Shown piece after piece: positions 32,857 through 58,900 of a DNA stretch of 64,000 nt (positions are counted from its first letter, which is position 1; each line of letters begins with the position of its first letter). A model generated the notes under the pieces. The model searched no databases. It had not been told where the DNA came from and saw nothing but the letters and a program-made list of their open reading frames with translations. Source of the DNA: Flectonema sp. DT1601. Taxonomy: Eukaryota. A program made the position numbers and the translations under genes. The stretch covers positions 372,001 through 436,000 of the forward strand of contig OZ025802.1 of NCBI GenBank assembly GCA_964019425.1, written 5' to 3'.

Positions 32857-32978
32857 AAAGGAATATCATTGTTAATTTAAGATACTCTTAAGATATATAT
32901 TGTAACAAATATGGGTAAATGACTTACGACGCCTCAACCTTTGTCAAACGAACAGGAGTAGACGACCGAACACTTGGC

Positions 32979-34428: not shown

Positions 34429-34437
34429 AGACTTTTA

Positions 34438-36803: not shown

Positions 36804-36809
36804 CTTTTT

Positions 36810-37489: not shown

Positions 37490-37543
37490 CTTTAATAATA
37501 ATAATAATTTTTTATTTATTTATTTATTATAAATAAAAAATAA

Positions 37544-39768
37544 CTGGAAGTACGTTCGTTAGATATTGACTATTTTGATCTAGACAGCGTGATCAACACG
37601 ACGACGACAAGGCCCACTTTACTGAGTGGTGAAACGATCCTCGAAGTAGAGGGGAAACCCATCAGGACTCAACAAGAATTAGAAGATTTACTGATGTTGA
37701 ACATCCACGACGAGATGAATGTCAAAGCGAAAATTAAAATTGCCTTCCTACTGCCGATCACGGACTCAGTGAAATATCTGGGTGTTTACATTGATAACAG
37801 GCTCAGGTTTGATAAACAGTTGGAGAAAATACACGACGAACTGAAGAAAGGGATCTCCCTTCTGCAGTGCCTCCAGCCATATGAATTGGACTACAAGACC
37901 CTAAAGATGGTTAAAAACTTGTACGTGACAGCGAGGATTTCCTATGCACTGGACAGCTTTGGTTGGTTGCTCAACCAGCATAAAACGGACGCTATCGACT
38001 TCGAGATGAGAAAAATAGCGAGACTCGTAACAGGATGCAGCAGATGTACTCCTAGGGAGTTGCTCCTTTGGGAAGCCGACATCTTACCGTTTAAAAGACA
38101 AATCGAAAAGCAGACTAAAATTGCCTATTTCAGGTACAAAGCCATGACCTGGGTGCCGGACACCAACTCACTCGCATCGCCTCGAAGCTTCTGGGGTGGC
38201 CTCATTCCCCGTTCTGAAGGTCAACTAGAAAGTGTGGGGATCGTTCAACCTGACTCTATCAAACCTTGGATTGCTTCGGACAATGTTCAAATCAGCAACA
38301 GCTGCGGTTTTACAAAATCCCCTGATCCCGCAGTGGACAGGGAGAAATTCCTTACCTACAACGCGACACTTCCTCCGGTGGACATGGTGATCAACTGTGA
38401 CGGTTCATACTCTTCGAATGCGTCAGGCGCGGCTCTCATTGCTAAGTCACGAGACGGAAAGAAACGTGCTCATGCGACCAGATTAGTGCGTGCGGATTGC
38501 AGCTACAGAACAGAGCAACATGCCTTGAAAAATGCGGCAAACTACTTAAACTGGAAGGTACAGAAAGACGGGTTAACTAAGTCAGTCAGAATCTATACCG
38601 ACTCAAAATCATTGTTGGACGAGTTGAAGGGTGGCAGGTGTAAACAGAGAAACACCAGATCCCTCGGCATCCTCGAGAACCTACGGAACTGCGGTATGAA
38701 AGTACATCTTCAATTCATCCCTTCTCACATGGGGATAGAAGCACACGACGAAGTTGATGAACTTGCTAAGAAATCGGCTCACAACAGATACCTCCCTCAA
38801 ATCCCAATCCGAGGATCCTTCTTCTATCACAAATCCCGAGTGAGGAGGGGGATCACGAAGGACATTTGGAACAGAATTGGCTACACTTGCTATAAAAACA
38901 CCGTCAAAGGTGCCGCGATAAAATATCCTCCCGACATGAAAAGGAGCGATGAAATCAGAATTGCGAATTTCAGAACGGGGTGTCATCCACTGATGCAAAA
39001 CTGGCGGAAAGCCATCAAATGTCCATTCTGCCATAGCGCTCCATCCAACCAACTCCACCTACTCGTAGGCTGTCCATCACAGAAACTCGATGCAGCCAGA
39101 TATGAAATCCTTGGCTTTTCTACATTGACAGGCAAATGGGACCGATCAAGTGATCTAATCCTCATCAACGGCATTCCTGCCAGTCTTGGCTCAATCTTTG
39201 CCACCAGCTGGCTTCCTTCAGTAGCGATGTTGATCAGGTGGATGGAACAAGCATCCAACCTGAGACTTTGGAATTGTGTAGGTGACACGTAGTCGCCATT
39301 TAAGTGTTTTATCAATATTTAGTATTTTCATCATTATCAATCATCTCCTGGTTGGGTAACTGCACATCACCTTCGGTGTTGTCTCGGTGTCCCTTCCAAT
39401 ACTCCTTTCTCCTTCTTCTCCTATTCTCCTTATAAATTTCTCTTGAGGGCAGGCCTTCGGGCTGTTCAAGTGGTCTTTGACCACCGCTCTAGTTATATGC
39501 TCGACTCTTTGTTTTCCTTATCGATGGTAGGAATGGTAACCGAATTAGCTTCATGTGTCCAATTTCAAGGACGCGTGACCATTTATTTTCTTCCGTTGCC
39601 GCTCTTCTTACGTCCTCAGGCGGAGCCTACCTACGTTTCCCGTGTTTTCCAATTTGTCAGACTTAAATCAAAAGAAAGTATAAAAGAAAGACAAAACAAA
39701 GAAGTGAAAAGAACAAAAACAAAGAGTCTGGAAGCACAGACGAGTGTAACCAAAAAAACTTTTCTTTT
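37544..39768 (+). mobile_element. 5'-truncated divergent LINE of the same family (RT thumb, RNase H, CCHC; ORF remnant 37544-39292)
   Basis: VKYLG, NCDGS, YRTE, YTDS, FIPSH, EVDEL, RTGCH, CPFC..HLLVGC; 3'UTR ends GTGTAACC-oligo(A). Confidence 0.9.
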
Positions 39769-39770
39769 TT

Positions 39771-41940
39771 GCGGGGATGAATAGAGCATACTTGCTGGAG
39801 AGCGGAGGTGGTGCGATGCTGAAACAATGGAGTTTCAACCGCTTGGAGGGAGCGGGGGACCCAGCGATGCTCGTCCTCATGAGGGCAGTGCGTGATATCT
39901 TGTCGAGCTGTGGAGTCCTCGGCAAGCTGGGCGACGTCCAGGCGTACGGGCCTTTGGGGGGCTGGGAAGAGGGGGAATGGACACAGGTGAGGGGCATGGT
40001 CCAGAAGGCGAGTGGGGCGGGGATCTCCCTGAAGATCGCCGATCTACCGAGAGAGGTGAGGCATAGCGCGTACGAGTGGTGCTACGGAGTCCCCGAAGGA
40101 ATCCCAGAGAGGAAGCCAATGGTGTCTTTCCCCATGGTAGAGATGATCCCACGACCCGCGTTAGGCGACCGGCGAGGCCGGGTAGCGGAGGCGGTAAGGA
40201 CACGCCCACTGGCGATAACACAGGGGCCGACCAAGCGGAGATTGGGAGGACGCTCGCCATCAGACCTGAAGAAGACAAAGTCGAGTGACCCGCGGAGGGA
40301 CTCGATGGACGGCCCAGCTGGAGCTCCTTCATCGCACATTGCATCAGATGGGCCACCCCTAGCGGAGGCCAAGGAAACCAGGCAACAAGGGTCGGACAAT
40401 GCCCAACAGCAAAACAGACTGCAGGAGGACCCCAAGCCGGGTAGCGGACGTGTGACACCGGACTGCGAACATCGCACAGGGCCCGAACAGGCAGAGACAC
40501 CAACAGGGGCTGACTCGCAACCGGGACGGGACAAACCGCCGACGGAGTCGAACGCGGAGGAGACAGCGTCGGCCGGTGGGATCGAGCAACAAGAATCAGA
40601 GAGCACACAACAGGAAATCAAAGTGCACGAAGATTCGAAGCAAGAGACCGTGACCCGACTCGCTGACGGAGAGGCGATACCTGTGCTGCCTGACTATGAG
40701 CTCCTGCAGGCAGAATTTGAGAAGGGAACAGCGACGGCGGAGGCACGTGCTGAGAGGGGGCGGCAGGAGGAGGAGGTTAATGTAGTAAAGAAGCCAGCCG
40801 AAGGAACCGAGCCACAAGAGTCAGAAAGCGCCCAACAGGAAAACAATCTGCTGGAAGACTCGAAGCTTGCAACCAAGACTGGGAGCGATGATGCAACACC
40901 GGTGCTGCTGGAGGAAGGGAGTTCCCCTCGAACCGTGTTGGATGAACAGACGGCGAAGGATCACGCAGGGGACGGCATGCGGCTGCAGCGAGCTGTGTCG
41001 TCGGAGACATCAGACTCCGAAATGACATGCATGGACACAGATGTGACGAATTCGGGCGATGATGACACCTCAACATGCTCGGCACCGTCGGAAGATCCAC
41101 CTGAGCTGGGAAAGTGTCTGTGTGGAGACAGATGGCTCCCGAGGAACTTTAGGAGGAGACCCTTGGCTAGTAATGGGTGGTGCAACAGATGCCGCAGGAA
41201 GAGACTGAAGGGTACGTTGATGGTAAACTGTAGCAAATGCGACTTCGACCAATGCTGTGATCTGGCCGCGCTGAAAGCCAAACTCGCCAAGGAGGCGAAA
41301 AAGACGAAGACGAAGAGAAGGAGAGCCCATGACAAGGCGCGGAAGGGACCGGCTGGAGCTGACCGGGACCTTCTGTATCTGAGTAGTACAGACGCGTCGT
41401 CGTCGGGTTCGAAGACATTAGGGAACTTTGCGAGAGAGCTGGTGAGACGGCGGAGTAATAGAGGTAGGCTGCGGAAGCAAGTGTTTGGAAACAAGAGGAG
41501 AGTAGGAACAGGGAGCCTAACACGGTCATGCTCAGGTAACGAAGAAGACGACGACTAGGAAGAAGGAACATGTGAAAAAAAGTGAAAGGGAAAAAAAAAA
41601 AAAAAAAAAAAAAAAAAGGGTGAGCAAAAGAAAAGAACCAATGCGTGCCCAGGGAACACTGCGAACGAGCTTACTATACTACTCAGGGGTTAAAAAGAAA
41701 TGGGGAAAAAAAAAAAAAAAAAAAAAAAAAAGCAAAACAAAACGTGACCTTGTGAGCCATCATGAGTTATAATTTACTTATCTTTTCTTCGCCATGGCGA
41801 CGGGTAATCGTGGGACCTGTAAAACCAGCTTAAGACTGTTGATGTGGTTTATATTTTTAGCACGCATTCATACATCATAAGGATCGCTGGTTCCGAGGGT
41901 TTGCTCTCCCACTTACCTGCCTCTCTATCCCTCAAAAAAA
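39771..41940 (+). mobile_element. 3' fragment of a divergent relative of the CRE-like element (ORF remnant 39777-41558, 3'UTR, oligo(A))
   Basis: First ~105 aa align by eye with the second RNase H-like fold of the 2840-aa ORF (MLKQWSF~VLGTWSA, SSCGVL~KACGGL, GPLGGW~GSTTHW, IADLPREVRHSA~LVEMPERMRTHA). Same G/A-rich composition, acidic tail and a Cys-rich finger; ends in oligo(A) at the SL. Confidence 0.7.
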
Positions 41941-41979
41941 AACCAACGATTCTAAAGCTACAGTTTCTGTACTTTATTG
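41941..41979 (+). other. Spliced-leader (mini-exon) sequence, diplonemid type, retroposed copy 1
   Basis: AACCAACGATTCTAAAGCTACAGTTTCTGTACTTTATTG, 39 nt, with the euglenozoan CAGTTTCTGTACTTTATTG 3' part; followed by TTTTTTCCC rather than a GT SL intron. Confidence 0.93.
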
Positions 41980-42631
41980 TTTTTTCCCTCCCTCGCCCCA
42001 TCCCCGTCAGCGAGTAGGAAAGCGCAGCTAGGAATTTTTCCACGCAAGCGGATCCCACAACCCGACCACCCTTCCCCACGCTCACCCCATCCACCCTCCC
42101 CCACCCCAACAAAAGAAGAAATCGGCGGCAGCCACGTGACACACTCGTGTTCGTGTAGCGAAGCGTTTCGGCGACTTCGAAGACGACGACGACGACGACG
42201 TAGAAGAGACGGTGTATGTGACTGACCTTCTTCTTCCTTATTTATTTGTTTACTTTTGTTAATTACTTCCTCTTAATTTCATTCCTCTCTTAGATTGTTG
42301 TTTATTTGCTTATTTATTTGTTTGTTTATCTGTCTGTTTATCTGTCTGTATATTCTGTTACTATCTGTTATTTTGTTACATTTATTTATCTGTCTACATT
42401 AGAGTACATTTTTGTTATTGTTAAATTTAAACATCTTCTTCACAGTTTTTTCCCTCCCTCGCCCCATCCCCGTCAGCGAGTAGGAAAGCGCAGCTAGGAA
42501 TTTTTCCACGCAAGCGGATCCCACAACCCGACCACCCTTCCCCACGCTCACCCCATCCACCCTCCCCCACCCCAACAAAAGAAGAAATCGGCGGCAGCCA
42601 CGTGACACACTCGTGTTCGTGTAGCGAAGCG
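41980..42631 (+). repeat. 186-bp direct repeat X (41980-42165 and 42446-42631) separated by a T-rich spacer ending CTTCACAG
   Basis: The two copies read as identical; the first follows the SL, the second follows an AG acceptor. Confidence 0.92.
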
Positions 42632-42693
42632 CTTAGCGCTTTAAAGTCTTTTAAGTCTTTTAAGTCGCCCCCGTCGCCCCCCGACCCCCACAG

Positions 42694-42881: not shown

Positions 42882-42914
<33 letters not shown>

Positions 42915-42997
42915 AATTAGATTTTGCATAGGCATACTTGCAGAGGAGGAGATAAACGCGGGTCCTTCAGTGAGCTCTAGTACATCGGCGGGGTAGG

Positions 42998-43031
<34 letters not shown>

Positions 43032-43278
43032 CATCTATCTTCGGTCTACGAACGCTTTGAGTCGGCCAGCAGTCACAAACGGACATTGAAGGCGCGGATA
43101 ATTGTTGTTGCTGTGGAAACCTTGCTCTGCTGAAGAGGGAGTTGAAATTTTCCCCACCTGCATTCTGATTCGAGTTGTCTTCGAGAGTACTTTGCTTTTG
43201 TCAAAAGTTAATTATTCCTCCAGCTCATACGTCCTTCTCATCTTTTCTGGAGACTGGACCGCTGGTGAACGCGCAAAC

Positions 43279-43552
43279 AGAACAAATATTTTCTTTTGTT
43301 CTTCGTTAAGACTACACTGAGACACGGTCTTCCGCAAAACATCGCACGAACAGAACATATCTTTTCTTGTTCTCGTTTAAACACCGCTTAAGACAGCGAA
43401 AAGAACAAATCCTTTTTTTTTGTTCTTGTTTAAACTCTGCTTTGATACACGGTCTTCCGCTAGTCAGCGCGCGAGAAGAACATATCTTTTCTTGTTCTCG
43501 TTTAAACTTTGCTTTTAAGACCTGCAAACAGAGCATATCCTTTTTTTGTTCT
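43279..43552 (+). repeat. Five imperfect hairpin repeats AGARCA-N(11-15)-TGTTCT in the element 5' region
   Basis: Units start near 43279, 43352, 43402, 43477 and 43530, most followed by GTT(T)AAAC; also present at ~55243-55517. Confidence 0.7.
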
Positions 43553-43870
43553 TGTTAAAACTCTCTTTTAAGACAAAACTTTACGAATCAGCCTGCGGGA
43601 GAGGAGAAGGAAGAACTCTCTCACTAGCTTTGTTTGGTGCCTGTGGTGGTGACTACCATTCTGCGTCGGAACTGTACGGGGGTGACCGCATAGACAGAAG
43701 AGTTCGGAAAGCGGAGGATACGCGAGCCGGAAAAAAAAAAAAAAAAAAAAAAAAAACCTACTCCACACACACGTACAGGGCTAACAAGGAGAAGAGCAGG
43801 TAAGTCGATTGTCTTTTTTCGGGTTCCATACACAAATCATCCACAGCGAAGGGAACGGAAAAGGAAGAGT

Positions 43871-43916
<46 letters not shown>

Positions 43917-43919: not shown

Positions 43920-46900
43920 ATGGAGAAAACAATGTTACTGTGTGGGTACGTGCTGCTGTGGGCACTACTAAGTGGAACGAGGGCGCAACAGACGTCCGGA
44001 GTGGGTAAGCAGAGGTTAGCCCCAGTGCCAGGCGGATGGCACACCCCTCTATTCACAACGCTGGACAAAGGCCCACTGTTTTCATCGCGCATCAGCCGAC
44101 GCGTAACACGCCCGATCCCCCCGCACCCATTTGTAACCCCCAACAGCTCAAACAGCCCCAACAATACGGCAAGCGGACGCGCTTTCCAACATGGACGAGA
44201 GGGGGTGTGGGTCCCGTGGAGGGGAACGGAAACGGCCGGGAACCGGGTGAGGCGAGACCACCCAAAGCCACCTCCAGACAAGGGAGGAAGGGAGCTCCTG
44301 AAGAGGGCGTCCCCGAAAGTGGCGTCCAAGGCGGCAAGGCGGCTGGAAAGGAGGAGGAGGAAGCTGCTGAAGGAACGGCAGGAGAGGTGGGAGCGGTGGG
44401 TGGGAGAGTTGGAGAAGTTCCACGCCAGGCGAGAGAGATTCCGCGCGGAGACAGAGAGGCCAAGGAAGAACAAGGCGGAGACACCGAAGAAGCGACGGGC
44501 AGGGCCCGAAAGGGACTGGACAAAGCCAGGAGGGCACAAGGCGGAGCCCAGACCATGGTATGCGAGGCCGTCAGACCTGGCAGGAGGAGGGCAAAGCAAG
44601 GAGAGGACGAAGTGCCCGGTGGTGGGGTGCAGCGTCTGGGTGAGGGGTGACCTAGAGTACCACTTCAAACAACACCTGAAGGGAGTGGTACCGGGGGAGG
44701 TAACGGCCCAGATGGCTTCCGACAGACTCGGAAAGCAGATCTGCAAGGCCTGCGGGGAGCTGAGTACCGGATTGGTGCACCAGACAGTGAGGTGTCGGGA
44801 GATGTTGGACCTCAAGGGACGGCTGGGGGTAGCGACGGGACCCGCGCCGGAACTGGCAAGCCTGAAGTGCGAGGGAGCAAAAGTATTTCGGGTGATTGGG
44901 GATGGGAATTGCCTGTTCAGGAGTGTGTGCCAACTCCTAGAGACGCCAGAGGGGTGGAAGGGCAGACATGGAGAGCTCCGCAGGAGAACGGCAGGGTGCC
45001 TGACCAAGAACAGGGAAAGGTTCGAGGTCTTCTTCCAGGACGCGGACGCATTCGGAGTATATGCGAGGGCGTTAGAAGAGGATGGATGCTGGGGCGATGC
45101 GTTGGCCCTACAGGTCATGGCAGAGGACCTACAGTGCCGCTTCGTCGTCGTGGTGAGGACGGAAACGCTGGTGGTGGAAGGGCCATCGGACCCGAAGCAG
45201 ACGCTGGTCTTGACCCTGCAGAACGGGTGTCACTACGACCCAGTGGAGGCATCCGAGGACTGCGTCGCGCGGCTGCTACAGAGCGCCCGGAGGTTGGAGT
45301 TAGTGTCGCCAGGCCCGCTGTCGCAAGCAGCAGGAGGCGAGCCGGCAGTGCTGCAGACAGCCTCCCGACAGGCCCAGCTGCACGAGTGCCCCCAAGCGGA
45401 GTGCCCGAAACACAAGGGAGGCTTCGAGGAGTGGGCGGAGCTCCTAAGACACGTGGACGAGCACGCATTCAGTGGCAACCCGCTGACGCATGGACAGTTG
45501 GCGAGGCTAGGCCTCCGGGAATGTCCGGTGTGCTGTGGGATCATCGGGCAGGACCAGCCGATGCATCCGGGGTGCAGTGAGAAACTGCAGAAGGTCCAAC
45601 TGGGGGACGTGTACACGGCGTTCCGGAAGCGGGTGCTGGAGAGCCAGAGCTTCCCCTCATTGGAGGAAATAGCCAGCAGGAGGAGGCCGATAGCGAAGAA
45701 GCTGCCGGTGCCCCTGTTGCACCATTTGGGGCGAGCACTCAAGCTGGCGCTTGACCTAGTCGTGGAGCGGAACGATGAGTGGGCATGGAAGCTGCTCTTG
45801 ATGCTCCCGACTTGTACACTGCGGAGGATACGGAGGGGGGGTAGGAGGTTGTCGACCAGCAATCTGACAGGGGCTGTCGACGACCTGCAAGCATGGATTC
45901 GGGGGGATTTTGAGGGACTGTGGAAAGCGGCGGCCCCCCGCAAGGCGACGGGAAGGCCAGCAGTGAAAGAGGCGGGGCAAAAAGGAAGGAACGACAGGGC
46001 CACGTCGCTAGCGAGGGAGGGTTGCCTGTCACAGGCGATCTCGGCCCTAGACGCGCCGCCGCCAGCAGAACGAACCGAGAAGGTGCTGGAGCAGATGCGC
46101 ACCCTACACCCGAGGGCGAGCGGACCCCCATCGGCCACGGCAGGGCAGGAGGTGCAGATAGCAGAGGTGGAGCTGCTAGCATGCCTACGCTCCTTCCACA
46201 GGGGGTCGAGTGGAGGGCCTTCGGGCCTCGCGCCGCAACACCTGAAGGACGTGGTGGAGCGGGGTGAGGTGCCGGGGCTGGTAGCCTCGATCACGGAGGT
46301 GGTGAGGATTCTGGCGAACGGGAGGGCGCCGCGGGAAGTAGCGCCGCTGCTGGCGGGGGCGAACCTGACGGCGCTGGAGAAAGAAGGGAAGCCGGGGGAG
46401 CACCGGCCAGTCGCGGTGGGGGAAACATGGAGGCGGCTGGTGGCGAAGATCCTGTGCGGGGCATACAGGTCCCAGGCGAGGAGCTCGTTGCTAGAAGTGA
46501 GACAGCTGGGAGTAGCGGTGTCGGGGGGAGTGGAGGCGGCGGTGCACACCCGGCATGAGTTCCGCGCGGAGCACGCGCTCTCGTCACAGAAAGTGTTCGT
46601 GAAGATAGACTTCTCGAACGCCTTCAACTGCGTGAAGAGGGGGGCGTTCCTGGATTCGACGAGGGATACCCTGCTGGAGAGCTGGGTCAGCTGGTGTTAC
46701 GGAGCGCCGACGTGGTTGCTGTTTGGGGACGAGAGGCTGAGCTCGGAGGAGGGCGCTCAGCAGGGGGATCCGTTGGGTCCCTTGCTGTTCTCGTTGGCAA
46801 TCAAGCCGGCGCTGCAGAAGGTGTTGGAGGCGAAGCCGGAGTTGGCGTGCTTCTACCTGGACGATGGGCTGGTGGCGGGCACCCTGGAACAGGTAGACAA

Positions 46901-49900
46901 GGCCCTCCAAATCCTGCAGAAGGAGACGGCGGAGCTGGGGCTGACGCTGAGGCCGGACAAGTGCCAGACGCACGTGCTCGACTCAGCCCAGAACACCCTG
47001 CCCTTGGGGTGGGGGTTGGAAGGGATGAGACCCCCACTGTACAACGGGGACTTCCTGGGGGCACCGTTCGGGACGGAGGAACACTGCCAGGAGTTCGTCG
47101 ACAGGAAGGTGGCGCAGCTGGAGAAGAAAGCGGAGCTGCTAGCAGACCTGCAGGACCGGCAGGTGGCCATGGTGCTCCTAAGGCAATGCATGGGCTTCTG
47201 CAAGGTGACCCACCTGATGCGATGCTGCACGCATGGGAAAATGGACACCTCGATGCGGAAGGTGGACGAGCTGATGAGGTCCACGGCGAGCCGAGTGTTG
47301 GGCCTGACACTGGAGGGGCCAAAGTGGATGCAAGCACAACTGCCGACCCGGATGGGGGGATTGGGGCTGCGGTCATGTGCAGAGCACAGGGGAGCAGCAC
47401 TATTGGGATCCCTGGAATTAGTCCAAGGGGTGAGCAAGTCACTGTGGGAGGGGTTCAAGGGGGTGCTGATGCCAGCACTGAAGAAGGGGTTGAACCTCGC
47501 CCTCCCGGAGGAGCTAAGGATAGAAGAAGACGGGCCGGGGCCGAACCCCCAGAGGCTGTCCTCGGCGAAACTGGACCAGGTCAAGAGAGACTGCCTGCTG
47601 GCGGGGGCGAATGACCCGCGCGATAAAGGGAGGCTGCTCTCCCTGCGCATGGATAAGGCGAGCGCATGGCTGCAACAAGCAGATGAAGAGTGCGCGATGG
47701 ACCCAGAGACGTTCAGGATCGCATGTGGGATGCGATTGGGCGCAGCGCTGTTCGCGGAAGGGGCAGTATGCAGGATATGCTCAGGCCCACAGGATAGGCA
47801 GGGATACCATGCCTCAATCTGTATCAAAAACGGCCACGTGCACCAGCGACACGAGAGGGTGAAGGAGGAGTTCATCTCCATCTTTAAGCAGGCGGGATTG
47901 CCGCTGCTGAGAGAACCCAGCCACCTACTGGGACCCAACAAGCAGAGACCGGGGGACTGGTACTGCCAAGAGGGGCTGAGGGAGGGGAGAGGCAGAGCCT
48001 TCGACATCACAGTGGTAAACCCGGGGAAAATTAAATTGTATAAAACCCCGGGGCAAGCCGCGAGAGAAGCAGAGTCCCTGAAAGGGAACAAGTACGCGGA
48101 GCAGTGCACGAAACACGGGATTAATTTCTCGACAATTGCGCTGGAAGCGTACGGAGGGATGGGACGGGAAGCAGTGGGGACCCTGAAGAAGTTGGTGCAG
48201 ATCTGCGCAACGAACTCGACGGTGCCACACCGGGAGATCGCGGGGGAGATGGCGAGGAGGATCTCGACATCGGTGGTAGTGGCGACGGCGGAAGCACTGA
48301 GAGCGAGGGAGGCGTCGGTGGCGATGGACTCAGTGAACCCATTGCCAAGGACGAAACCGCCGCCCGAGATGACGGAGAAGCCGACATCACAAGAGAGAGA
48401 ACCAAGACCGAGAGCGGAAACGGAAGAGATCCAGCAGCCGGAAGTAATGCGACAGTCGGCAGGACCGCCCCCGACGATGAGAGGTTTGCCGAACATCGGG
48501 AACTCCTGCTACCTCGACGCGTCCGTACAGTGCCTGCTGAAGGGCACGGCACTGACACAAGTGCTGACGGGGAAGGAGGAAGTGGGGATGTCGGGCCTCC
48601 TGAGTGGAGTGGTCAAAGGGAGTGGGGAGTGCCTGGAGAAGCTGTCCGAGATGTTCGACCCGCTACAAGACAGGCGGCAGGGGGAGGTAGTAGGAACCCT
48701 GACGTCCATAGTAGACGCCCTGTTGGAGGAGAAGAAAGAGGTGTGCGAACCGTTGTTCTCGGCAGTACAGCTGAAACAGCTGGTCTGCACGGGTTGTGCG
48801 GACGCCTCCGGATCGACGGATGAGTTGACGCTGATCCCACTGAGTGGCCGTACACCACAAGTGAGGCTTCAGCCGACGAAGGAGAGAGTCGAGCGGTCCT
48901 GCGAGAAGCTGTGCGGCAGCAATGAGGCCACGCTGGAAGAGAGTTTCGCCTCGCTCCCAAGCTCCTTGATCTTCCAGAGAGACAAGCAGGACACGCAAGG
49001 GTCCTTGGGATGGGAAGAGCGCTTCCAGGTGCAGGTCGGGGAGAGGGTGATGACGTACCAGCAAACGGGAGCGATCGCGCACCTCGGGAGTGACAACGCG
49101 GGGCATTACGTGTCATACACGTGGGACGGAGTAGGCTGGCAGAAGCAAGACGACAAGGCAATAAGCCAAGTGTCGACAGAGGAGATCCACGGGACGAAAC
49201 CAGTAGTAGTGGTCTACTCGAGGGTGGAGGGATCGACCCAAGAGGACGTCGGGGTGCCGGTGAGATGGATTCCGGTGGCGAACAAGGACCGGATGGAGGT
49301 ACGCGAGGCACCGCCGTCGGAGGAGGACACCGCGGGGTACACGTCCAGGGAAGAGGCGGAGTGTGTCCTCCGGACGCGAGTAGTAGGGGGGCAGACGCAG
49401 CGCAAGCTGCTCTTACTGGTATCGAGCGTCTGGAACGCGGAGATGGAGAAGCTGGGGGCGGCAGCATGCCTGATACACATGGGAACGCTCGACAGGAGGT
49501 TCACGTGGTCGGGCTGCCTACCGACATGGGACGAAGCGACTGCGGAGTACGTGGCAGCGCTGCTAGGGCTCAACGCGATCAGGGAGAGATCGCAACTGCT
49601 GGGGGGTGAGACACAGATCGAGGTGGTCATACCGCAGCAGGGGTGGGGAGCCGAGCAGCAGGAGGCGCTGAAGTTGGTAGCGCTCCCGTCGGTGATAGAA
49701 CACCAGGTGACGGAAAGCTCACGAGGGGTGGAGAACCTGGCCCTCTGGGAAGCGGAATCGGCGGCATGGGACGAGCCGGTGGAACTCTCGGAGGACGGGC
49801 TCGACTACTTGGTGATCGAGCTGGAGATGAATCTGGGGCTGTCCCAATTGAGGGGAAAGGCGGCGGAACCGGATGAATCCCAGTCGCTCCCAGGAGGGTC

Positions 49901-52442
49901 GACGGCATCAGGCGAAGACAGACCACGAGCCGAAGCGCCAGCCCAGGTGGAAGCGCAGACGACGGAAGCACAAGGAGCGGAAGCAGTAGGGCTGAGAGAC
50001 GAGCCAGCACAGGAAGTGGGACAACCCGAGGAAAAAGAGCCCCCATCCCCCGACCCCCCGTCGAAGGAGGAGAAGCTGTATGCGGTGGCGGTGGGATGGA
50101 AACCGGGAGTGTATGCATCGTGGGAGGAGGCGAAGGCACAGACGGAAGGGTGCCCGAATGCGACACACCAGAGTTTCTCCTCCAGGAAGGAGGCGGACAG
50201 GTTCGTAGAGAGGTGGCAGCCGGAGACCAGGGAACCGACCCGGGCCACGGAGGGAGTCAGCCCACGTAAGTGGTACGCAGTGGCGAGGGGCAGGGCGGTA
50301 GGCCTGTTCCAATGCTGGAACGAGGCGAACTCGATGGTGTCAGGCTACGCGGCGGCGAGACACAAGAGTTTCGCAAGCAAGGGGGAGGCGGAGGGATACC
50401 TCCGAACCCACCTGCTGGGGGAGGTGGTTGGCGAAGTAGGGACGAGGTACACCTTGGTGTACGCATGCGAGGAAGACCCGGTAACGGGCCGTCTGGGGGC
50501 GGCGGCGAGCTGGTTGGACACACACCGTTTCGAGGTGTTGGGCACATGGTCAGCTGGCCTGCCAGCGGGAGACACACACTGGGGGCGATACTTCGCAGCC
50601 CTGGTGGGGCTGGTAGCGGCCAAGGCGTGTGGAGGCCTCGTCCCAGCGGAGGCATCCCTGCTGCTGCGAGGAAGCACGACACACTGGTCGACGGACCAGA
50701 GAGAGGTGCTGGAGGAGGCGGAGTTGATGGGGAGGCGTACGACGCTGGTGGAGATGCCAGAGAGGATGAGAACACACGCGACGGAGGAGGCGGAAAAAGC
50801 GGCGAAGGAGGGCTCGACCTCAGTGACGGAAGCCGTGATGAAGGTTTTCACAGAGGGGGCAAAGAACTGCCTGGGACACGGGACACAGACGGGTCCCTTC
50901 ACGGTGCGGTGGGAGGGAAGACAACTGCGTCTGGAACCCCAGTACACAGAAGAGGGGACGGGATCGTCAGGCGGCCGAGAGTCGGTGGAAGGAGAAGACG
51001 CGAGGGTAGAGGGCCGAGACGAGCAGAGCCCGGTCCCAACCCCGAAGGGGGCCGTGCAAAGGGTAGAGGCGGGAGTCCTGGAGTTGAGCTCGGAAGGGTC
51101 GGAGGGAGATGACGATAGATCATCCTCCCCAGCGACAGGGCAGGACGAAGGGAACGGTTCCATGTCGGGAGGCTCCTTGGGGAGTCCAGGGACGTCGGAC
51201 ATGGAAGCGGAAGAACAGACGGACGAAAGGGACCAGTCAGTAGACCCGTCGGCAGCAGAGACCTCAGGCGAAAACCATCACCTGGCCGAGGACCTGCAAG
51301 CCGAGAAGGGGGACGAGCTGGACGAGACGTCCCACCACTCAGGAGAGCCACCGTCGTCAGACGGCATGGACGGAGTGGAGGGGTTGGAGGACCTGGAAGA
51401 CTCACAGTCGGAGATGGAAGTCGACGGAGATAATGTGACGGAAGGGTCAGTAGTCCAGTACGTCGAGGAGACGTCAGAGGACGTGGTCCAGGTGGCAGAG
51501 TCGGACACAGAGGAGGAGGGATCGTCAGACTCCCAAATGACCATGACGGTCGATGAACAGGAATGGGAAGAGGGAGCGGCGCCCGAGGGGAACACAGGTC
51601 AGATGGCCTGGATGCTGGGACTACACCCAGAAGGGGGGAACGCGGAAACACGACGGGAGGGCCAATCGGAGCCCCTTTCAAAGCTGGTGAACTCAGGCGA
51701 AACAAAACCAATGGCCGAGAGATCCAGTTTGGGGGCGAAGATGGGACCACGCGCAGTGGGTAGTGACGGGAGCGGGGAAGATGCAGAGAGATCGCCGGGC
51801 ACGGTGTCGACACCGAGCACGAGAGGGAGGACGAAGTACAGAAAGGGAATGGAGGAGGAGAGGGAGGAGTGTGTGTCGCCGAAGACAAATACGGGAAGGG
51901 GACGCACGAGAGGCCGGAAGGCAAAGACGGGGGCAAAGGGGGCCGGAAAGGAGGACCCAAGTCCGCAGGTGTTGCAGGCGGAAATGGGAGAGTCCACCCC
52001 GAGCTCAGGTGAACGGCAGGCGAGGAGGAGGTACAGGAAGGGAGAAGAGAGGGAGAGGATAGAGGTTCTCTCCCCAGACCCGAGCAGGAAAGCGAAGAGG
52101 AAGAGACGCAAGCAGAAGGAACCGGAGCCAGTGGAGGGCACCACGAGGGAACAGGCGCCGCGGAGTTACAACAGGAAACCCACACTGCGTCGGGTAGGTA
52201 AGGGAGACTCACCCGACACAATGGGGTACGCACACGGGCCCCCGGGCTCCCTGACCTCGTTCACGGACGCGGGCGTACGCCCGGAGCCGGCGGAACGAGA
52301 CGGACAAGGTGTGGCAGGAGCAGAGTTGGTCACAAGGTCGTCGTCACAGAGTGAGAAAAGCACCCAAGGAGAGATGAGGGAGAGAGAAGGGGATCCAACG
52401 CGAAGGGTCCTGGACTTCTCGTCGAAAGGGGGAAGGCGCTAG
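43920..52442 (+). CDS. Retrotransposon polyprotein (2840 aa): signal-like N-terminus, zinc fingers, OTU, zinc fingers, RT, CCHC-RLE, USP (C19), RNase H-like, 2x RNase H1 hybrid-binding domain, RNase H-like, acidic/basic tail
   Basis: OTU GDGNCLFRS/WGD/HY (~44885-45240); RT DFSNAFN, QQGDPLGP, YLDD, QLPTRMGGLGL (~46000-47400); CRIC..H...C, RHE, RPGD, FDITV, KGNKY (~47770-48150); USP GLPNIGNSCYL, AHLG..GHY, QDD (~48480-49220); YAVAVGWKPGVYASW and WYAVARGRAVGLFQCW (~50075-50410). First ATG at 43920. Confidence 0.92.
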   Translation: MEKTMLLCGYVLLWALLSGTRAQQTSGVGKQRLAPVPGGWHTPLFTTLDKGPLFSSRISRRVTRPIPPHPFVTPNSSNSPNNTASGRAFQHGREGVWVPWRGTETAGNRVRRDHPKPPPDKGGRELLKRASPKVASKAARRLERRRRKLLKERQERWERWVGELEKFHARRERFRAETERPRKNKAETPKKRRAGPERDWTKPGGHKAEPRPWYARPSDLAGGGQSKERTKCPVVGCSVWVRGDLEYHFKQHLKGVVPGEVTAQMASDRLGKQICKACGELSTGLVHQTVRCREMLDLKGRLGVATGPAPELASLKCEGAKVFRVIGDGNCLFRSVCQLLETPEGWKGRHGELRRRTAGCLTKNRERFEVFFQDADAFGVYARALEEDGCWGDALALQVMAEDLQCRFVVVVRTETLVVEGPSDPKQTLVLTLQNGCHYDPVEASEDCVARLLQSARRLELVSPGPLSQAAGGEPAVLQTASRQAQLHECPQAECPKHKGGFEEWAELLRHVDEHAFSGNPLTHGQLARLGLRECPVCCGIIGQDQPMHPGCSEKLQKVQLGDVYTAFRKRVLESQSFPSLEEIASRRRPIAKKLPVPLLHHLGRALKLALDLVVERNDEWAWKLLLMLPTCTLRRIRRGGRRLSTSNLTGAVDDLQAWIRGDFEGLWKAAAPRKATGRPAVKEAGQKGRNDRATSLAREGCLSQAISALDAPPPAERTEKVLEQMRTLHPRASGPPSATAGQEVQIAEVELLACLRSFHRGSSGGPSGLAPQHLKDVVERGEVPGLVASITEVVRILANGRAPREVAPLLAGANLTALEKEGKPGEHRPVAVGETWRRLVAKILCGAYRSQARSSLLEVRQLGVAVSGGVEAAVHTRHEFRAEHALSSQKVFVKIDFSNAFNCVKRGAFLDSTRDTLLESWVSWCYGAPTWLLFGDERLSSEEGAQQGDPLGPLLFSLAIKPALQKVLEAKPELACFYLDDGLVAGTLEQVDKALQILQKETAELGLTLRPDKCQTHVLDSAQNTLPLGWGLEGMRPPLYNGDFLGAPFGTEEHCQEFVDRKVAQLEKKAELLADLQDRQVAMVLLRQCMGFCKVTHLMRCCTHGKMDTSMRKVDELMRSTASRVLGLTLEGPKWMQAQLPTRMGGLGLRSCAEHRGAALLGSLELVQGVSKSLWEGFKGVLMPALKKGLNLALPEELRIEEDGPGPNPQRLSSAKLDQVKRDCLLAGANDPRDKGRLLSLRMDKASAWLQQADEECAMDPETFRIACGMRLGAALFAEGAVCRICSGPQDRQGYHASICIKNGHVHQRHERVKEEFISIFKQAGLPLLREPSHLLGPNKQRPGDWYCQEGLREGRGRAFDITVVNPGKIKLYKTPGQAAREAESLKGNKYAEQCTKHGINFSTIALEAYGGMGREAVGTLKKLVQICATNSTVPHREIAGEMARRISTSVVVATAEALRAREASVAMDSVNPLPRTKPPPEMTEKPTSQEREPRPRAETEEIQQPEVMRQSAGPPPTMRGLPNIGNSCYLDASVQCLLKGTALTQVLTGKEEVGMSGLLSGVVKGSGECLEKLSEMFDPLQDRRQGEVVGTLTSIVDALLEEKKEVCEPLFSAVQLKQLVCTGCADASGSTDELTLIPLSGRTPQVRLQPTKERVERSCEKLCGSNEATLEESFASLPSSLIFQRDKQDTQGSLGWEERFQVQVGERVMTYQQTGAIAHLGSDNAGHYVSYTWDGVGWQKQDDKAISQVSTEEIHGTKPVVVVYSRVEGSTQEDVGVPVRWIPVANKDRMEVREAPPSEEDTAGYTSREEAECVLRTRVVGGQTQRKLLLLVSSVWNAEMEKLGAAACLIHMGTLDRRFTWSGCLPTWDEATAEYVAALLGLNAIRERSQLLGGETQIEVVIPQQGWGAEQQEALKLVALPSVIEHQVTESSRGVENLALWEAESAAWDEPVELSEDGLDYLVIELEMNLGLSQLRGKAAEPDESQSLPGGSTASGEDRPRAEAPAQVEAQTTEAQGAEAVGLRDEPAQEVGQPEEKEPPSPDPPSKEEKLYAVAVGWKPGVYASWEEAKAQTEGCPNATHQSFSSRKEADRFVERWQPETREPTRATEGVSPRKWYAVARGRAVGLFQCWNEANSMVSGYAAARHKSFASKGEAEGYLRTHLLGEVVGEVGTRYTLVYACEEDPVTGRLGAAASWLDTHRFEVLGTWSAGLPAGDTHWGRYFAALVGLVAAKACGGLVPAEASLLLRGSTTHWSTDQREVLEEAELMGRRTTLVEMPERMRTHATEEAEKAAKEGSTSVTEAVMKVFTEGAKNCLGHGTQTGPFTVRWEGRQLRLEPQYTEEGTGSSGGRESVEGEDARVEGRDEQSPVPTPKGAVQRVEAGVLELSSEGSEGDDDRSSSPATGQDEGNGSMSGGSLGSPGTSDMEAEEQTDERDQSVDPSAAETSGENHHLAEDLQAEKGDELDETSHHSGEPPSSDGMDGVEGLEDLEDSQSEMEVDGDNVTEGSVVQYVEETSEDVVQVAESDTEEEGSSDSQMTMTVDEQEWEEGAAPEGNTGQMAWMLGLHPEGGNAETRREGQSEPLSKLVNSGETKPMAERSSLGAKMGPRAVGSDGSGEDAERSPGTVSTPSTRGRTKYRKGMEEEREECVSPKTNTGRGRTRGRKAKTGAKGAGKEDPSPQVLQAEMGESTPSSGERQARRRYRKGEERERIEVLSPDPSRKAKRKRRKQKEPEPVEGTTREQAPRSYNRKPTLRRVGKGDSPDTMGYAHGPPGSLTSFTDAGVRPEPAERDGQGVAGAELVTRSSSQSEKSTQGEMREREGDPTRRVLDFSSKGGRR

Positions 52443-53183
52443 GGACTCCACGAAGGAGGTCTCAAGAGTCGAGGAAAAGACAGAGCCAAGACCCCAGAGC
52501 CAACCCAAAACACATGGTAGAGGACGAGGGAGAACAAGAGCGGGAGCGAGGTTAGAAACGTGACCAAAGCCCCCGCGAAGCAGGAGACACAACCTGCAAC
52601 CAGACCCCCCCAAAAGAAAAAAAACCCCGGTCAACGAGGCAAACTCGGACCAAAACATGCTTTTCACCCCCCCCAGGAAACACCGACCAGTGGAGCCAAA
52701 GGCCGCACACATATTATAAAAATCAAAGGCCGCCCCCCAACCCAAGAAAAGGATGAAAAACTTTCAAGCGAAAAAACTTGACGTCCGTACGCCCCAGAGA
52801 TCAAAGGACGGACGACTCACACCCCCTTCTTTCGCCCCATTTTATTTACTGGTACAGCGACAAATGTAAAGCTGGGTAGACGACGAATTATCTTTTGTGC
52901 ACAGAGACAAGGGATCCATGAGAACAAAGGATCAAGAGAAGAAGGGCACATTCCCCATCCCAAAACCAGAAACATGAGAACTCATTAAATTGAAGGGTCA
53001 TGTCTTTTCAAGTCGAAAAATGCTTAAATGCTAAAGAAGACTGTCGTCCCCAGCTCGCGGGTTTTCCCTGTCGCTGTATGTCGAGACAACGATCAGAGTC
53101 AGAAGAAGGATTGTACTAATTAACAGTATAATGAAAAAGGACAAAGAGAGTAGTTTCCATTTTATCTTCCCGAATATAAAAAA

Positions 53184-53222
53184 AACCAACGATTCTAAAG
53201 CTACAGTTTCTGTACTTTATTG
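53184..53222 (+). other. Spliced-leader sequence, retroposed copy 2
   Basis: Identical 39-mer, preceded by the oligo(A) tail of copy A and followed by repeat X. Confidence 0.93.
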
Positions 53223-54009: not shown

Positions 54010-54740
54010 TTTTTTTTTTTTTTTTTGGTTACACTCGTCTGTGCTTCCAGACTCTTTGTTTTTGTTCTTTTCACTTCTTTGTTTTGTCTTTCTTTTATAC
54101 TTTCTTTTGGTTTAAGTCTGACAAATTGGAAAACACGGGAAACATAGGTAGGCTCCGCCTGAGGACGTAAGAAGAGCGGCAACGGGAAAAAATAAATGGT
54201 CACGCGTCCTTGAAATTGGACACACGAAGCTAATTCGGTTACCATTCCTACCATCGATAAGGAAAAACAAAGAATCGAGCATATAACTAGAGCGGTGGTC
54301 AAAGACCACTTGAACAGCCCGAAGGCCTGCCCTCAAGAGAAATTTATAAGGAGAATAGGAGAAAAAGGAGACAGGAGTGTTGGAAGAGACACTGCGACAA
54401 CACCGAAGGTGATGTGCAGTTACCCAACCAGGAGATGATTGATAATGATGAAAATACTAAATATTGATAAAACACTTAAATGGCGACTACGTGTCACCTA
54501 CACAATTCCAAAGTCTCAGGTTGGATGCTTGTTCCATCCACCTGATCAACATCGCTACTGAAGGAAGCCAGCTGGTGGCAAAGATTGAGCCAAGACTGGC
54601 AGGAATGCCGTTGATGAGGATTAGATCACTTGATCGGTCCCATTTGCCTGTCAATGTAGAAAAGCCAAGGATTTCATATCTGGCTGCATCGAGTTTCTGT
54701 GATGGACAGCCTACGAGTAGGTGGAGTTGGTTGGATGGAG
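54010..54740 (-). mobile_element. Nested, inverted, 5'-truncated copy of the LINE at 37544-39768
   Basis: Reverse complement of ~39039-39768 with a poly(A) tail (T-run 54010-54026); absent from copy A; flanked by duplicated AAAAAATTTTT. Confidence 0.92.
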
Positions 54741-55754: not shown

Positions 55755-55875
55755 ACTCCACACACACGTACAGGGCTAACAAGGAGAAGAGCAGGTAAGT
55801 CGATTGTCTTTTTTCGGGTTCCATACACAAATCATCCACAGCGAAGAGAACGGAAAAGGAAGAGTAGCAAAAAAA

Positions 55876-55923: not shown

Positions 55924-58900
55924 ATGGAGAAAACAATGTTACTGTGTGGGTACGTGCTGCTGTGGGCACTACTAAGTGGAACGAGGGCGCAACAGACGTC
56001 CGGAGTGGGTAAGCAGAGGTTAGCCCCAGTGCCAGGCGGATGGCACACCCCTCTTTTCACAACGCTGGACAAAGGCCCACTGTTTTCATCGCGCATCAGC
56101 CGACGCGTAACACGCCCGATCCCCCCGCACCCATTTATAACCCCCAACAGCTCAAACAGCCCCAACAATACGGCAAGCGGACGCGCTTTCCAACATGGAC
56201 GAGAGGGGGTGTGGGTCCCGCGGAGGGGAACGGAAACGGCCGGGAACCGGGTGAGGCGAGACCACCCAAAGCCACCTCCAGACAAGGGAGGAAGGGAGCT
56301 CCTGAAGAGGGCGTCCCCGAAAGTGGCGTCCAAGGCGGCAAGGCGGCTGGAAAGGAGGAGGAGGAAGCTGCTGAAGGAACGGCAGGAGAGGTGGGAGCGG
56401 TGGGCGGGAGAGTTGGAGAAGTTCCACGCCAGGCGAGAGAGGTTCCGCGCGGAGACAGAGAGGCCAAGGAAGAACAAGGCGGAGACACCGAAGAAGCGAC
56501 GGGCAGGGCCCGAAAGGGACTGGACAAAGCCAGGAGGGTACAAGGCGGAGCCCAGACCATGGTATGCGAGGCCGTCAGACCTGGCAGGAGGAGGGCAAAG
56601 CAAGGAGAGGACGAAGTGCCCGGTGGTGGGGTGCAGCGTCTGGGTGAGGGGTGACCTAGAGTACCACTTCAAACAACACCTGAAGGGAGTGGTACCGGGG
56701 GAGGTAACGGCCCAGATGGCATCCGACAGACTCGGAAAGCAGATCTGCAAGGCCTGCGGGGAGCTGAGTACCGGATTGGTGCACCAGACAGTGAGGTGTC
56801 GGGAGATGTTGGACCTCAAGGGACGGCTGGGGGTAGCGACGGGACCCACGCCGGAACTGGCAAGCCTGAAGTGCGAGGGAGCAAAAGTATTCCGGGTGAT
56901 TGGGGATGGGAATTGCCTGTTCAGGAGTGTGTGCCAACTCCTAGAGACGCCAGAGGGGTGGAAGGGCAGACATGGAGAGCTCCGCAGGAGAACGGCAGGA
57001 TACCTGACCAAGAACAGGGAAAGGTTCGAGGTCTTCTTCCAGGACGCGGACGCATTCGGAGTATATGCGAGGGCGTTGGAAGAGGATGGATGCTGGGGCG
57101 ATGCATTGGCCCTACAGGTCATGGCAGAGGACCTACAGTGCCGCTTCGTCGTCGTGGTGAGGACGGAAACGCTGGTGGTGGAAGGGCCATCGGACCCGAA
57201 GCGGACGCTGGTCTTGACCCTGCAAAACGGGTGCCACTACGACCCAGTGGAGGCATCCGAGGACTGCGTCGCGCGGCTGCTACAGAGCGCCCGGAGGTTG
57301 GAGTTAGTGTCGCCAGGCCCGCTGTCGCAAGCAGCAGGAGGCGAGCCGGCAGTGCTGCAGACAGCCTCCCGACAGGCCCAGCTGCACGAGTGCCCCCAAG
57401 CGGAGTGCCCGAAACACAAGGGAGGCTTCGAGGAGTGGGCGGAGCTCCTAAGACACGTGGACGAGCACGCATTCAGTGGCAACCCGCTGACGCATGGACA
57501 GTTGGCGAGGCTAGGCCTCCGGGAATGTCCGGTGTGCTGTGGGATCATCGGGCAGGACCAGCCGATGCATCCGGGGTGCAGTGAGAAACTGCAGAAGGTC
57601 CAACTGGGGGACGTGTACACGGCGTTCCGGAAGCGGGTGCTGGAGAGCCAGAGCTTCCCCTCTTTGGAGGAAATAGCCAGCAGGAGGAGGCCGATAGCGA
57701 AGAAGCTGCCGGTGTCCCTGTTGCATCATCTGGGGCGAGCACTCAAGCTGTCGCTCGACCTAGTCGTGGAGCGGAACGATGAGTGGGCATGGAAGCTGCT
57801 CTTGATGCTCCCGACATGTACACTGCGGAGGATACGGAGGGGGGGTAGGAGGTTGTCGACCAGCGATCTGACAGGGGCGGTCGACGACCTGCAAGCATGG
57901 ATTCGGGGGGAATTTGAGGGACTGTGGAAAGCGGCGGCCCCCCGCAAGGCGACGGGAAGGCCAGCAGTGAAAGAGGCGGGGCAAAAAGGAAGGAACGACA
58001 GGGCCACGTCGCTAGCGAGGGAGGGTTGCCTGTCACAGGCGATCTCGGCCCTAGACGCGCCGCCGCCAGCAGAACGAACCGAGAAGGTGCTGGAGCAGAT
58101 GCGCACCCTACACCCGAGGGCGAGCGGACCCCCATCGGCCACGGCAGGGCAGGAGGTGCAGATAGCAGAGGTGGAGCTGCTAGCATGCCTACGCTCCTTC
58201 CACAGGGGGTCGAGTGGAGGGCCTTCGGGCCTCGCGCCGCAACACCTGAAGGACGTGGTGGAGCGGGGTGAGGTGCCGGGGCTGGTAGCCTCGATCACGG
58301 AGGTGGTGAGGATTCTGGCGAACGGGAGGGCGCCGCGGGAAGTAGCGCCGCTGCTGGCGGGGGCGAACCTGACGGCGCTGGAGAAAGAAGGGAAGCCGGG
58401 GGAGCACCGGCCAGTCGCGGTGGGGGAAACATGGAGGCGGCTGGTGGCGAAGATCCTGTGCGGGGCATACAGGTCCCAGGCGAGGAGCTCGTTGCTAGAA
58501 GTGAGACAACTGGGAGTAGCGGTGTCGGGGGGAGTGGAGGCGGCGGTGCACACCCTGCATGAGTTCCGCGCGGAGCACGCGCTCTCGTCACAGAAAGTGT
58601 TCGTGAAGATAGACTTCTCGAACGCCTTCAACTGCGTGAAGAGGGGGGCGTTCCTGGATTCGACGAGGGATACCCTGCTGGAGAGCTGGGTCAGCTGGTG
58701 TTACGGAGCGCCGACGTGGTTGCTATTTGGGGACGAGAGGCTGAGCTCGGAGGAGGGTGCTCAGCAGGGGGATCCGTTGGGTCCCTTGCTGTTCTCGTTG
58801 GCAATCAAGCCGGCGCTGCAGAAGGTGTTAGAGGCGAAGCCGGAGTTGGCGTGCTTCTACCTGGACGATGGGCTGGTGGCGGGCACCCTGGAACAGGTGG

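Follow-up and report, generated by a model that had tools for sequence, protein, structure and literature searches.

Domain Architecture of the Polyprotein

The analyzed window is a stretch of 64,000 nt from contig OZ025802.1 (positions 372,001 to 436,000 of the forward strand) in the assembly GCA_964019425.1 of Flectonema sp. DT1601. All coordinates given below are those of the window, and features lie on the plus strand unless stated otherwise. Two units of a CRE-type retrotransposon lacking long terminal repeats (non-LTR) were found in it. The polyprotein encoded by each unit carries two different deubiquitinase (DUB) domains, of the OTU and USP types, on the two sides of the reverse transcriptase (RT) and the restriction-like endonuclease (RLE). 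The open reading frame (ORF) of copy 1 (43920..52442) is a single frame without a stop and encodes 2,840 aa. The ORF of copy 2 (55924..64000) is open to the window end, with 2,692 codons visible and 97.8% DNA identity to copy 1.

The domain order in copy 1 is zinc finger-OTU-zinc finger-RT-RLE-USP, followed by two hybrid-binding domains and two RNase H-like repeats. The N-terminal leader (aa 1-223; 43920..44588) has a short hydrophobic start and then a basic stretch, and ends in P-S-D-L-A-G-G (aa 217-223; 44568..44588), predicted by motif comparison to be a ubiquitin-mimic cleavage site. The leader is followed by a C2H2 zinc finger found by motif scan (zinc finger 1, aa 232-252; 44613..44675), the OTU domain (aa 315-447; 44862..45260; D328, C331, H438, and D440), which was delimited by Pfam and by structure-sequence alignment, and a second zinc-finger region, recognized from the sequence and also matched by relatives (aa 492-550; 45393..45569). 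The RT, identified by Pfam and by its motifs, occupies aa 761-1100 (46200..47219) with YLDDG at 979. A CCHC knuckle and the RLE (47769..48314; RHE, E1332, RPGD at 1343, D1362, and KxxKY) were located by motif comparison with PMC12857005. The compact USP/C19 domain (aa 1519-1772; 48474..49235; N1525, C1530, H1729, and D1744), supported by Pfam and by a predicted structure, carries a four-Cys zinc ribbon (C1623/1626/1661/1665).

The presence of both protease-type domains around RT-RLE, claimed in an earlier reading of the sequence alone (herein referred to as the sequence-only reading), was borne out by Pfam scores above the cut-offs: OTU at aa 327-414 (44.7 bits; cut-off 23.3) and UCH at aa 1521-1766 (41.6 bits; cut-off 23.9), with RVT_1 at aa 821-1019 between them. 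Two matches to Cauli_VI had been overlooked in that reading. All the catalytic motifs that it had named, i.e., GDGNCLFRS (327), HYD (438), GNSCYL (1527), AHLG..GHY (1720-1729), and QDD (1743), are present in both window copies.

The RLE has the motif C-X2-C-X9-H-X3-C-X8-RHE-X19-E-X10-RPGD-X15-D, of the SLACS/CRE/MoTeR type. Compared with the motif quoted in PMC12857005, its spacings are 1-2 residues off, with RHE in place of RHD/N and RPGD in place of RPD. The broad traits of the CRE clade are present, including a single ORF with RT, CCHC plus RLE, N-terminal zinc fingers, an internal repeat, and an A-rich 3' end, in which the A runs are short (6-7 nt). The RLE motif, zinc fingers, RT, and 3' end thus fit the earlier assignment to CRE-like elements. 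The long extension behind the RLE is unusual, as had been proposed: about 1,375 aa follow the RLE, vs. a median of 13 aa in the 211 relatives with an RLE match.

OTU and USP Domains and the C-Terminal Tail

The OTU domain aligns with the structures of human OTUD3, OTU1, and OTUD1, with Asp, Cys, and His in register; the best match is OTUD3 (E 1.1e-7). The profile score above the cut-off together with the Asp-x-x-Cys...His-x-Asp arrangement places it in the OTU family (C85-like). For the USP domain, an AlphaFold2 model was built from an 8-row alignment (predicted local distance difference test, pLDDT, 71; predicted template modeling score, pTM, 0.72). In a Foldseek search with this model, the top match was USP36 (E 2e-18; query template modeling score, TMq, 0.78) and every listed row was a USP. 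The Cys box, the His box, the Asp, and the palm-thumb-fingers fold of the model place the domain in the USP family (C19). A first USP alignment, in which three long-linker proteins were misaligned, was dropped and a later alignment was used instead. The in-house OTU and USP profiles gave no matches on a reversed-sequence control; proteins used to train them necessarily match.

Two RNase H1 N-terminal hybrid-binding domains (aa 2052-2095 and 2117-2162; 50073..50405) account for the Cauli_VI matches (95 bits), and the hybrid-binding domain of RNase H1 in PDB matches them with E 1.6e-7. They are flanked by RNase H-like repeats a (49368..49844) and b (50406..50909), which are 28% identical to each other and are treated as leads only. 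In ESM Atlas each repeat was called RNase H-like with a score of 0.90; for repeat b the named clusters were RNase H, and all 10 of its best matches belong to one clan. The catalytic acidic set, inspected by eye, is mostly gone in repeat a and absent in repeat b. The model of repeat a has pLDDT 40 and its best Z (5.9) is to an unrelated protein. Neither repeat had a Pfam or hhalign match, and the hhalign probability against the RNase H of a neighboring long interspersed nuclear element (LINE) was 0.1. The remainder of the protein (50910..52442) is a low-complexity tail, acidic and then basic in sequence, without a Pfam family.

Copies and Selection

Copy number and flanks were drawn from a protein cluster of 35 members, 15 of which were seen, and from two public sequencing runs. 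The 15 listed members are 85-99% identical and lie on contigs of 15 different sizes. The C-terminus is reached by 13 of these 15 members and the N-terminus by two, a pattern expected of 5'-truncated non-LTR copies, to which frameshifted pieces could contribute. The catalytic residues of the DUB domains have not decayed, which agrees with the sequence-only reading: among the members covering them, those of the OTU are unchanged in 2/2, the USP Cys in 6/6, and the USP His and Asp in 5/5. The RT catalytic residues are unchanged in 4/4 and the RLE Asp in 4/5.

Substitutions between the window copies were counted as the ratio of non-synonymous to synonymous differences per site (pN/pS), uncorrected and with small counts per domain. 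The ratio is 0.19 for the whole ORF (78 synonymous and 47 non-synonymous), 0.10 for the OTU (6 and 2), 0.26 for the USP (6 and 5), 0.05 for the RT, and 0.67 for the leader (2 and 4). The domains are under purifying selection. GC content at third codon positions (GC3) is 0.75 in the element and 0.34-0.42 in three host ORFs.

The ORF might be a chimera of assembly or gene calling, as the public runs cover it in pieces only and the whole genome was not compared. Against this explanation, two copies were found in the window, and the cluster has two more full-length members that come from other contigs. It is effectively refuted by the same domain order in a protein from the independently assembled genome of Diplonema papillatum (P0307, described below).

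Relatives and the RT Clade

Relatives were collected by an exhaustive search with aa 600-1780 (best 150 of 15,035 matches) and a word-based search (120 of 150). Pfam was run on 60 of 263 non-family proteins, selected as the longest or by prior hints, and on 13 cluster members, and the in-house profiles were run on all 292 collected proteins. The nearest named relatives among the matches listed are D. papillatum proteins automatically called SLACS. One of them, KAJ9439003.1 (P0307; 3,379 aa; 'SLACS 132 kDa protein'), has the order OTU-RT-RLE-USP with intact Cys and His boxes, and its USP scores 32.2 bits, above the Pfam cut-off. The sequence-only reading had named no precedent for an OTU+USP pair with so long an extension; no published description of the pair was found in the searched literature, but the same order is present in this unannotated protein. 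A homolog search with the whole ORF returned three proteins and a search with the USP only a family fragment; both searches were word-limited and are not evidence of absence. No OTU, USP, or spliced leader (SL) core was found in 79 JGI loci with related RTs, which are short (1-5 kb) and uninformative.

The RT trees contained neither an outgroup nor the named trypanosomatid SLACS, CZAR, or CRE1 sequences. In a tree of 242 rows, with eight same-family rows dropped and partial RTs excluded, the window protein falls into an 8-row clade (support 0.957). In a hand-picked RT-RLE tree of 53 rows it belongs to a 13-row clade with a Shimodaira-Hasegawa-like approximate likelihood ratio (SH-aLRT) of 99. 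An OTU- or USP-type domain was found in 12 of these 13 rows; the exception is a 742-aa fragment without flanks. The four near-complete clade members comprise two with OTU...USP, one with OTU...OTU, and one with OTU only. On this comparison, the OTU-RT-RLE-USP order characterizes the lineage rather than a single genome by chance.

In a separate clade, five Logan proteins (P0247, P0266, P0239, P0223, and P0249) have a longer USP after the RLE. This domain is a full cellular-type USP on a CRE-like RT-RLE, and tardigrade and moth proteins belong to the same clade; the USP either was captured independently or reflects read-through into USP genes of the host. That all nine USP-bearing rows go back to a single origin was rejected (approximately unbiased test, p-AU 2.3e-5; the group was named after the first tree was viewed and the tree was a quick LG+G4 one). 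USP behind the RLE has therefore probably arisen at least twice or been lost many times, and the slot behind the RLE appears to have been filled repeatedly.

Other extra domains were observed on ten CRE-like proteins (P0270, P0173, P0160, P0165, P0175, P0151, P0157, P0253, P0130, and P0233): Ulp1, MLLE, Prim-Pol, RNase H before the RT, a Dam-like methylase, and an independent N-terminal OTU.

The proteases might be recently captured passengers from host genes, useless to the element. Extra domains of many kinds (MLLE, Prim-Pol, PDZ, and RNase H) do occur on CRE-like elements, some OTUs of the clade are decayed, and pN/pS of the USP, with few changes, exceeds that of the RT. This explanation was already disfavored and is considered very improbable, as the catalytic residues persist in two diplonemid-type hosts whose domains are about 22% identical, pN/pS is well below 1, one 8.5-kb frame is maintained in both copies, and the element differs from host ORFs in GC3.

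Ubiquitin-Like Motif Before the First Folded Domain

The C-terminus of ubiquitin is LRGG. In five of the six clade families with an N-terminal OTU, a motif of the form [LM]xGG lies within the 45 aa that precede the first folded domain: LAGG in the window protein (220) and in P0307, LRGG in P0288, MQGG in P0085, and MRGG in P0018. None of the 47 OTU-less relatives has it at that position, where the background is 2.7% per 45-aa window. In P0307 it is the single [LM]xGG in all 3,379 aa. The longer form P-x-x-[LM]-x-G-G has 14 matches in 294,140 residues; 10 of these are at the leader site, in four of the five clade families having upstream sequence. In the window protein the motif lies 108 residues N-terminal of the OTU cysteine. 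No Met occurs there from aa 5 to 265, so zinc finger 1 can be made only if translation includes the leader.

Viral proteases/DUBs (PRO/DUBs) of the OTU and USP types are described as cleaving their own polyproteins at RLIGG or LXGG (PMC5695851, available part). The conserved motif is a strong lead, not proof, for self-processing of the window polyprotein, and lends specific support to the self-cleavage that the sequence-only reading had offered as an alternative. Hydrophobic 19-mers were found in four of five leaders; the leader of the window protein is not among these (best 1.33), and a membrane anchor as a general trait was rejected. In the linker between RLE and USP of a sister family (P0144 aa 290-720; P0178), repeated x-A-G-G and a PLAGG just past the RLE were observed; the x-A-G-G units are possibly more cut sites or low complexity.

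Two other explanations of the motif were considered. Both domains may be pure DUBs on an uncut polyprotein, with an incidental L-x-G-G; they would protect the element's protein from the proteasome or edit chromatin or repair marks at the nick. Both folds are nearest to cellular DUBs, CRE-like elements captured USP, OTU, and Ulp1 repeatedly and independently, and the same role was proposed for the OTU and Ulp1 domains of Ginger (PMC2836005, in the part consulted). The positional P-x-x-[LM]-x-G-G, shared by four families with otherwise unalignable leaders and missing from the 47 OTU-less relatives, stays unexplained by it, and we regard this explanation as rather unlikely. Alternatively, the L-x-G-G may be cut by a host DUB or by the element's own USP, the OTU being only a DUB or a ubiquitin-binding module. 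Host DUBs recognize the same ubiquitin-like end, which counts for this possibility. Coronavirus PRO/DUBs of the USP type also cleave LXGG (PMC5695851, same part). However, the motif tracks the N-terminal OTU even where the C-terminal protease is an OTU or is absent (P0288, P0018, and P0085), and it lies within about 35-130 aa of the OTU Cys; cleavage by another DUB is improbable.

Spliced Leaders, Unit Ends, and Genomic Context

Both units have the layout SL-A-B-acceptor-A'-...-ORF-3' untranslated region (UTR)-A run and are arranged head to tail. The 5' end of unit 1 is a complete 39-nt SL exon (41941..41979), joined to segment A instead of the SL intron. It is 37/39 identical to the 'Euglenozoa 14' SL exon tabulated in PMC3795323 (the table being the part used). 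The same 39-mer followed by a GT donor, the gene form, was found in 2/2 public runs holding parts of the element. Another complete SL exon, located by sequence comparison, forms the 5' end of unit 2 (53184..53222). At the junctions the SL exons lead into element sequence and not into a GT intron. The 5' repeat A-B-[pyrimidine tract+CAG]-A' occupies 41980..42636, with the acceptor AG ending at 42445, and the SL-A junction corresponds to the exact base where the pyrimidine tract and CAG join the duplicate A'.

The 741-nt 3' UTR of unit 1 (52443..53183) ends in a 6-nt A run adjoining SL nt 1 of unit 2. Unit 1, in turn, adjoins at its SL nt 1 the 3' remnant of another GC-rich element (39777..41940; 593-aa ORF, 3' UTR, and 7-nt A run), and in run X2 a diverged copy of the end of this remnant likewise adjoins SL nt 1. 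In total, the junction falls at SL nt 1 (or within nt 1-3, as the A run allows) in 2/2 cases in the window and in one case in run X2. Strict SLACS-type targeting, in which SL genes are entered between nt 11 and 12 of the exon, was rejected on these junctions.

Unit 1 lies between two identical SL exons, which represent either a target-site duplication or the trans-spliced 5' end belonging to each unit. The latter is favored because an internal acceptor is present, and the copies were, we infer, produced by reverse transcription of trans-spliced RNA, keeping a spare acceptor. One site holds a unit-specific base common to A and A' within each unit, and in a 492-nt contig from run X1, possibly a mere graph cycle, the acceptor stands directly before A; both are hints of a homogenized repeat. 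The array may have arisen either by RLE cutting the SL of existing retrocopies or by the RT jumping from the RNA cap to the poly(A) of the next RNA. Template jumping is known for R2.

In the 5' region, a repeat scan found a 125-bp tandem repeat (2.4 units; 43273..43568). Four long A tracts (26-40 nt) were observed at 42882-43913 in the shared part of this region and may partly be earlier retro-copied pieces. A short stretch resembling a cis-intron (CAG|GTAAGT...pyrimidines...CAG) lies at 43800-43846 in the 5' UTR and at about 55795-55841 in unit 2; it is kept in both copies, which is odd for retro-copied RNA. The 5' region of unit 2 also contains the 3' part of another LINE, one with an RNase H (54020..54740, minus strand; 98.2% identical to 39039-39758), and unit 1 has the empty site. 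The last 720 bp of this LINE are inserted in reverse at an A/T tract and are accompanied by an imperfect duplication. Two pieces of a LINE with RT and RNase H, 67% alike over 670 nt, occupy 34426-39758.

The remnant upstream of unit 1 (39777..41940) has no significant similarity to the main ORF. Its 593-aa ORF (39777-41558) has a Cys-rich finger near the end and a make-up like the tails of clade members, without a significant match; an RNase H-like repeat suspected by eye in the remnant was not supported (E 0.13). All long host ORFs, found at 1-33.9 kb, are on the minus strand, and mobile elements from 34.4 kb on are on the plus strand. Repeat regions between gene clusters, a layout like that of the window, are described for D. 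papillatum (PMC10161547, available part). As the nearest named relatives of the element come from D. papillatum, the host is probably a diplonemid. Among the host ORFs are a kinesin motor fused to a U-box domain (26454-27959, minus strand) and a 1,521-aa ORF without a Pfam family (28300-32865, minus strand). No Rfam matches were found within the 64-kb window.

Proposed Life Cycle of the Element

The element would be transcribed by read-through, as suggested by known non-LTR biology, and its RNA trans-spliced to the SL at the element's own acceptor. The product would be translated as one polyprotein that binds its RNA in cis. The OTU would remove the N-terminal leader after the ubiquitin-like L-A-G-G, a step for and against which the sequence evidence is about evenly balanced. 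OTU and USP would then take ubiquitin off the mature protein or its neighbors and avert degradation; such activity is probable for the OTU and, given the changed middle box, leans only slightly towards likely for the USP. Deubiquitination of the element itself or of chromatin and repair factors, as the sequence-only reading had proposed, is plausible. Finally, the RLE would nick the target and target-primed reverse transcription would proceed through to the SL cap, with the two hybrid-binding domains holding the RNA/cDNA hybrid.

Taken as a whole, a multi-copy CRE-type polyprotein acting like a viral PRO/DUB, with both self-processing and deubiquitination, has an even chance of being the correct explanation. 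Several observations weigh against it. The USP middle box reads RQGEVVG, vs. QHD in relatives, and the USP of copy 1 has Asp instead of Asn at 1533, so ubiquitin binding by the USP may be altered. The OTU of KAJ9439003.1 is below the Pfam cut-off (20.2 vs. 23.3 bits; E 9e-4), and the C-terminal OTUs of P0057 and P0139 are without Cys. The window USP matches the D. papillatum USP with 38 bits and that of an unrelated element with 40 bits; the sequences thus do not establish that the USPs share a common origin. As for the motif, P0129 is without [LM]xGG and the match in P0018 begins at the gene-caller Met. Three more [LM]xGG in the window protein (1893, 1990, and 2415) have no comparable conservation support, and none was found between its RLE and USP. 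The motif was spotted by eye before it was defined, and the families are not independent of one another by descent; the computed p (9e-8) is too strong for these reasons.

A wider scheme would extend to a diplonemid-centered clade with virus-style maturation (leader cut by a captured OTU), an exchangeable DUB (USP or OTU) behind the RLE as a shield against host defense by ubiquitin, and 5' ends defined by host SL trans-splicing, with head-to-tail arrays joined at the SL cap; it is tentative and stands somewhat below an even chance.

Significance

Ubiquitin and SUMO proteases in transposons have been noted since at least 2010, their role being left as a guess (PMC2836005, in its available part). 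Here a candidate substrate is part of the protease-bearing protein itself, 108 residues from the OTU cysteine on its N-terminal side, which makes this long-open role testable, and D. papillatum, the host of a relative, is genetically tractable. To our knowledge, ORF proteins of non-LTR elements are generally thought to act uncut; self-processing, if true, would be a new step in the non-LTR life cycle. That CRE-like elements have captured OTU, USP, and Ulp1 repeatedly hints at control of retrotransposon proteins by the host through ubiquitin. SL-capped head-to-tail copies suggest how an element may persist in a polycistronic, trans-splicing genome without inserting in SL genes. The architecture itself is less singular than was thought from the sequence alone.

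Comparison with Known Systems

SLACS, CZAR, and CRE1/CRE2 (PMC12278014, PMC5814959) share with the window element a single ORF, N-terminal zinc fingers, RT, and CCHC plus RLE, as well as an A-rich 3' end, an internal repeat, and the association with SL exons; unlike them, the window element has a 1,375-aa extension behind the RLE. The words protease, OTU, and ubiquitin are absent from the accessible text of a 2025 survey covering trypanosomatid CREs (PMC12278014). In SL genes, CZAR and SLACS are inserted between nt 11 and 12 of the SL (PMC5814959, available part), whereas the junctions in the window lie at nt 1 of leaders that were trans-spliced and retro-copied. KAJ9439003.1 has the same RT clade, the same OTU-ZnF-RT-RLE-USP order, and LAGG before the first zinc finger; unlike in the window protein, a low-complexity linker of about 900 aa precedes its USP, and no hybrid-binding or RNase H-like domains were found in it. 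The D. papillatum genome has an orthogroup of 745 SLACS-named proteins, with proteases unmentioned in the part of the source seen (PMC10161547, supplement file 5).

NeSL and Utopia-1_TSP (PMC4640811) are RLE retrotransposons in which a ubiquitin-family cysteine protease precedes the RT, and NeSL also targets SL genes. The Ulp1 of NeSL, cited as precedent in the sequence-only reading, is recorded there; Josephin and Dualen, its other precedent, have no occurrences in the available text and the precedent was not verified. Unlike the window element, these elements belong to a different clade and, as described in that text, have one SUMO-type Ulp1 and none behind the RLE. Ginger1, Helentron, and Mutator likewise fuse transposon enzymes to OTU or Ulp1 (PMC2836005, PMC6431247). 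Ginger1 has 'either OTU or Ulp1, but not both', and a role in repair signaling was proposed for it (PMC2836005); OTU is reported in Helitrons and peptidase C19 in a Trichomonas transposase (PMC2836005, PMC6431247). In contrast to the window element, these are DNA transposons, and no processing site is described for them in the available parts of the sources. No description of an OTU+USP pair in non-LTR or CRE elements was found in the searched literature, with Repbase and Dfam, which may catalog it, outside the search; SL-joined head-to-tail arrays had no description among the literature matches listed.

Like the viral PRO/DUBs of turnip yellow mosaic virus (TYMV), arteriviruses (OTU), and coronaviruses (PLpro) (PMC5695851, in part), the window polyprotein is predicted, by analogy, to combine polyprotein cleavage with deubiquitination. 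Unlike them, it does not belong to an RNA virus, and its OTU is nearest to the cellular OTUD3 type. Single ubiquitin or SUMO proteases in transposons are known; the leader motif is new here, and the OTU+USP pair flanking RT-RLE appears to be new as far as the searched literature goes. The element is a CRE-type non-LTR retrotransposon outside the strict SL-gene-specific SLACS/CZAR group, a placement made by motifs and architecture with trees that lack SLACS and CZAR.

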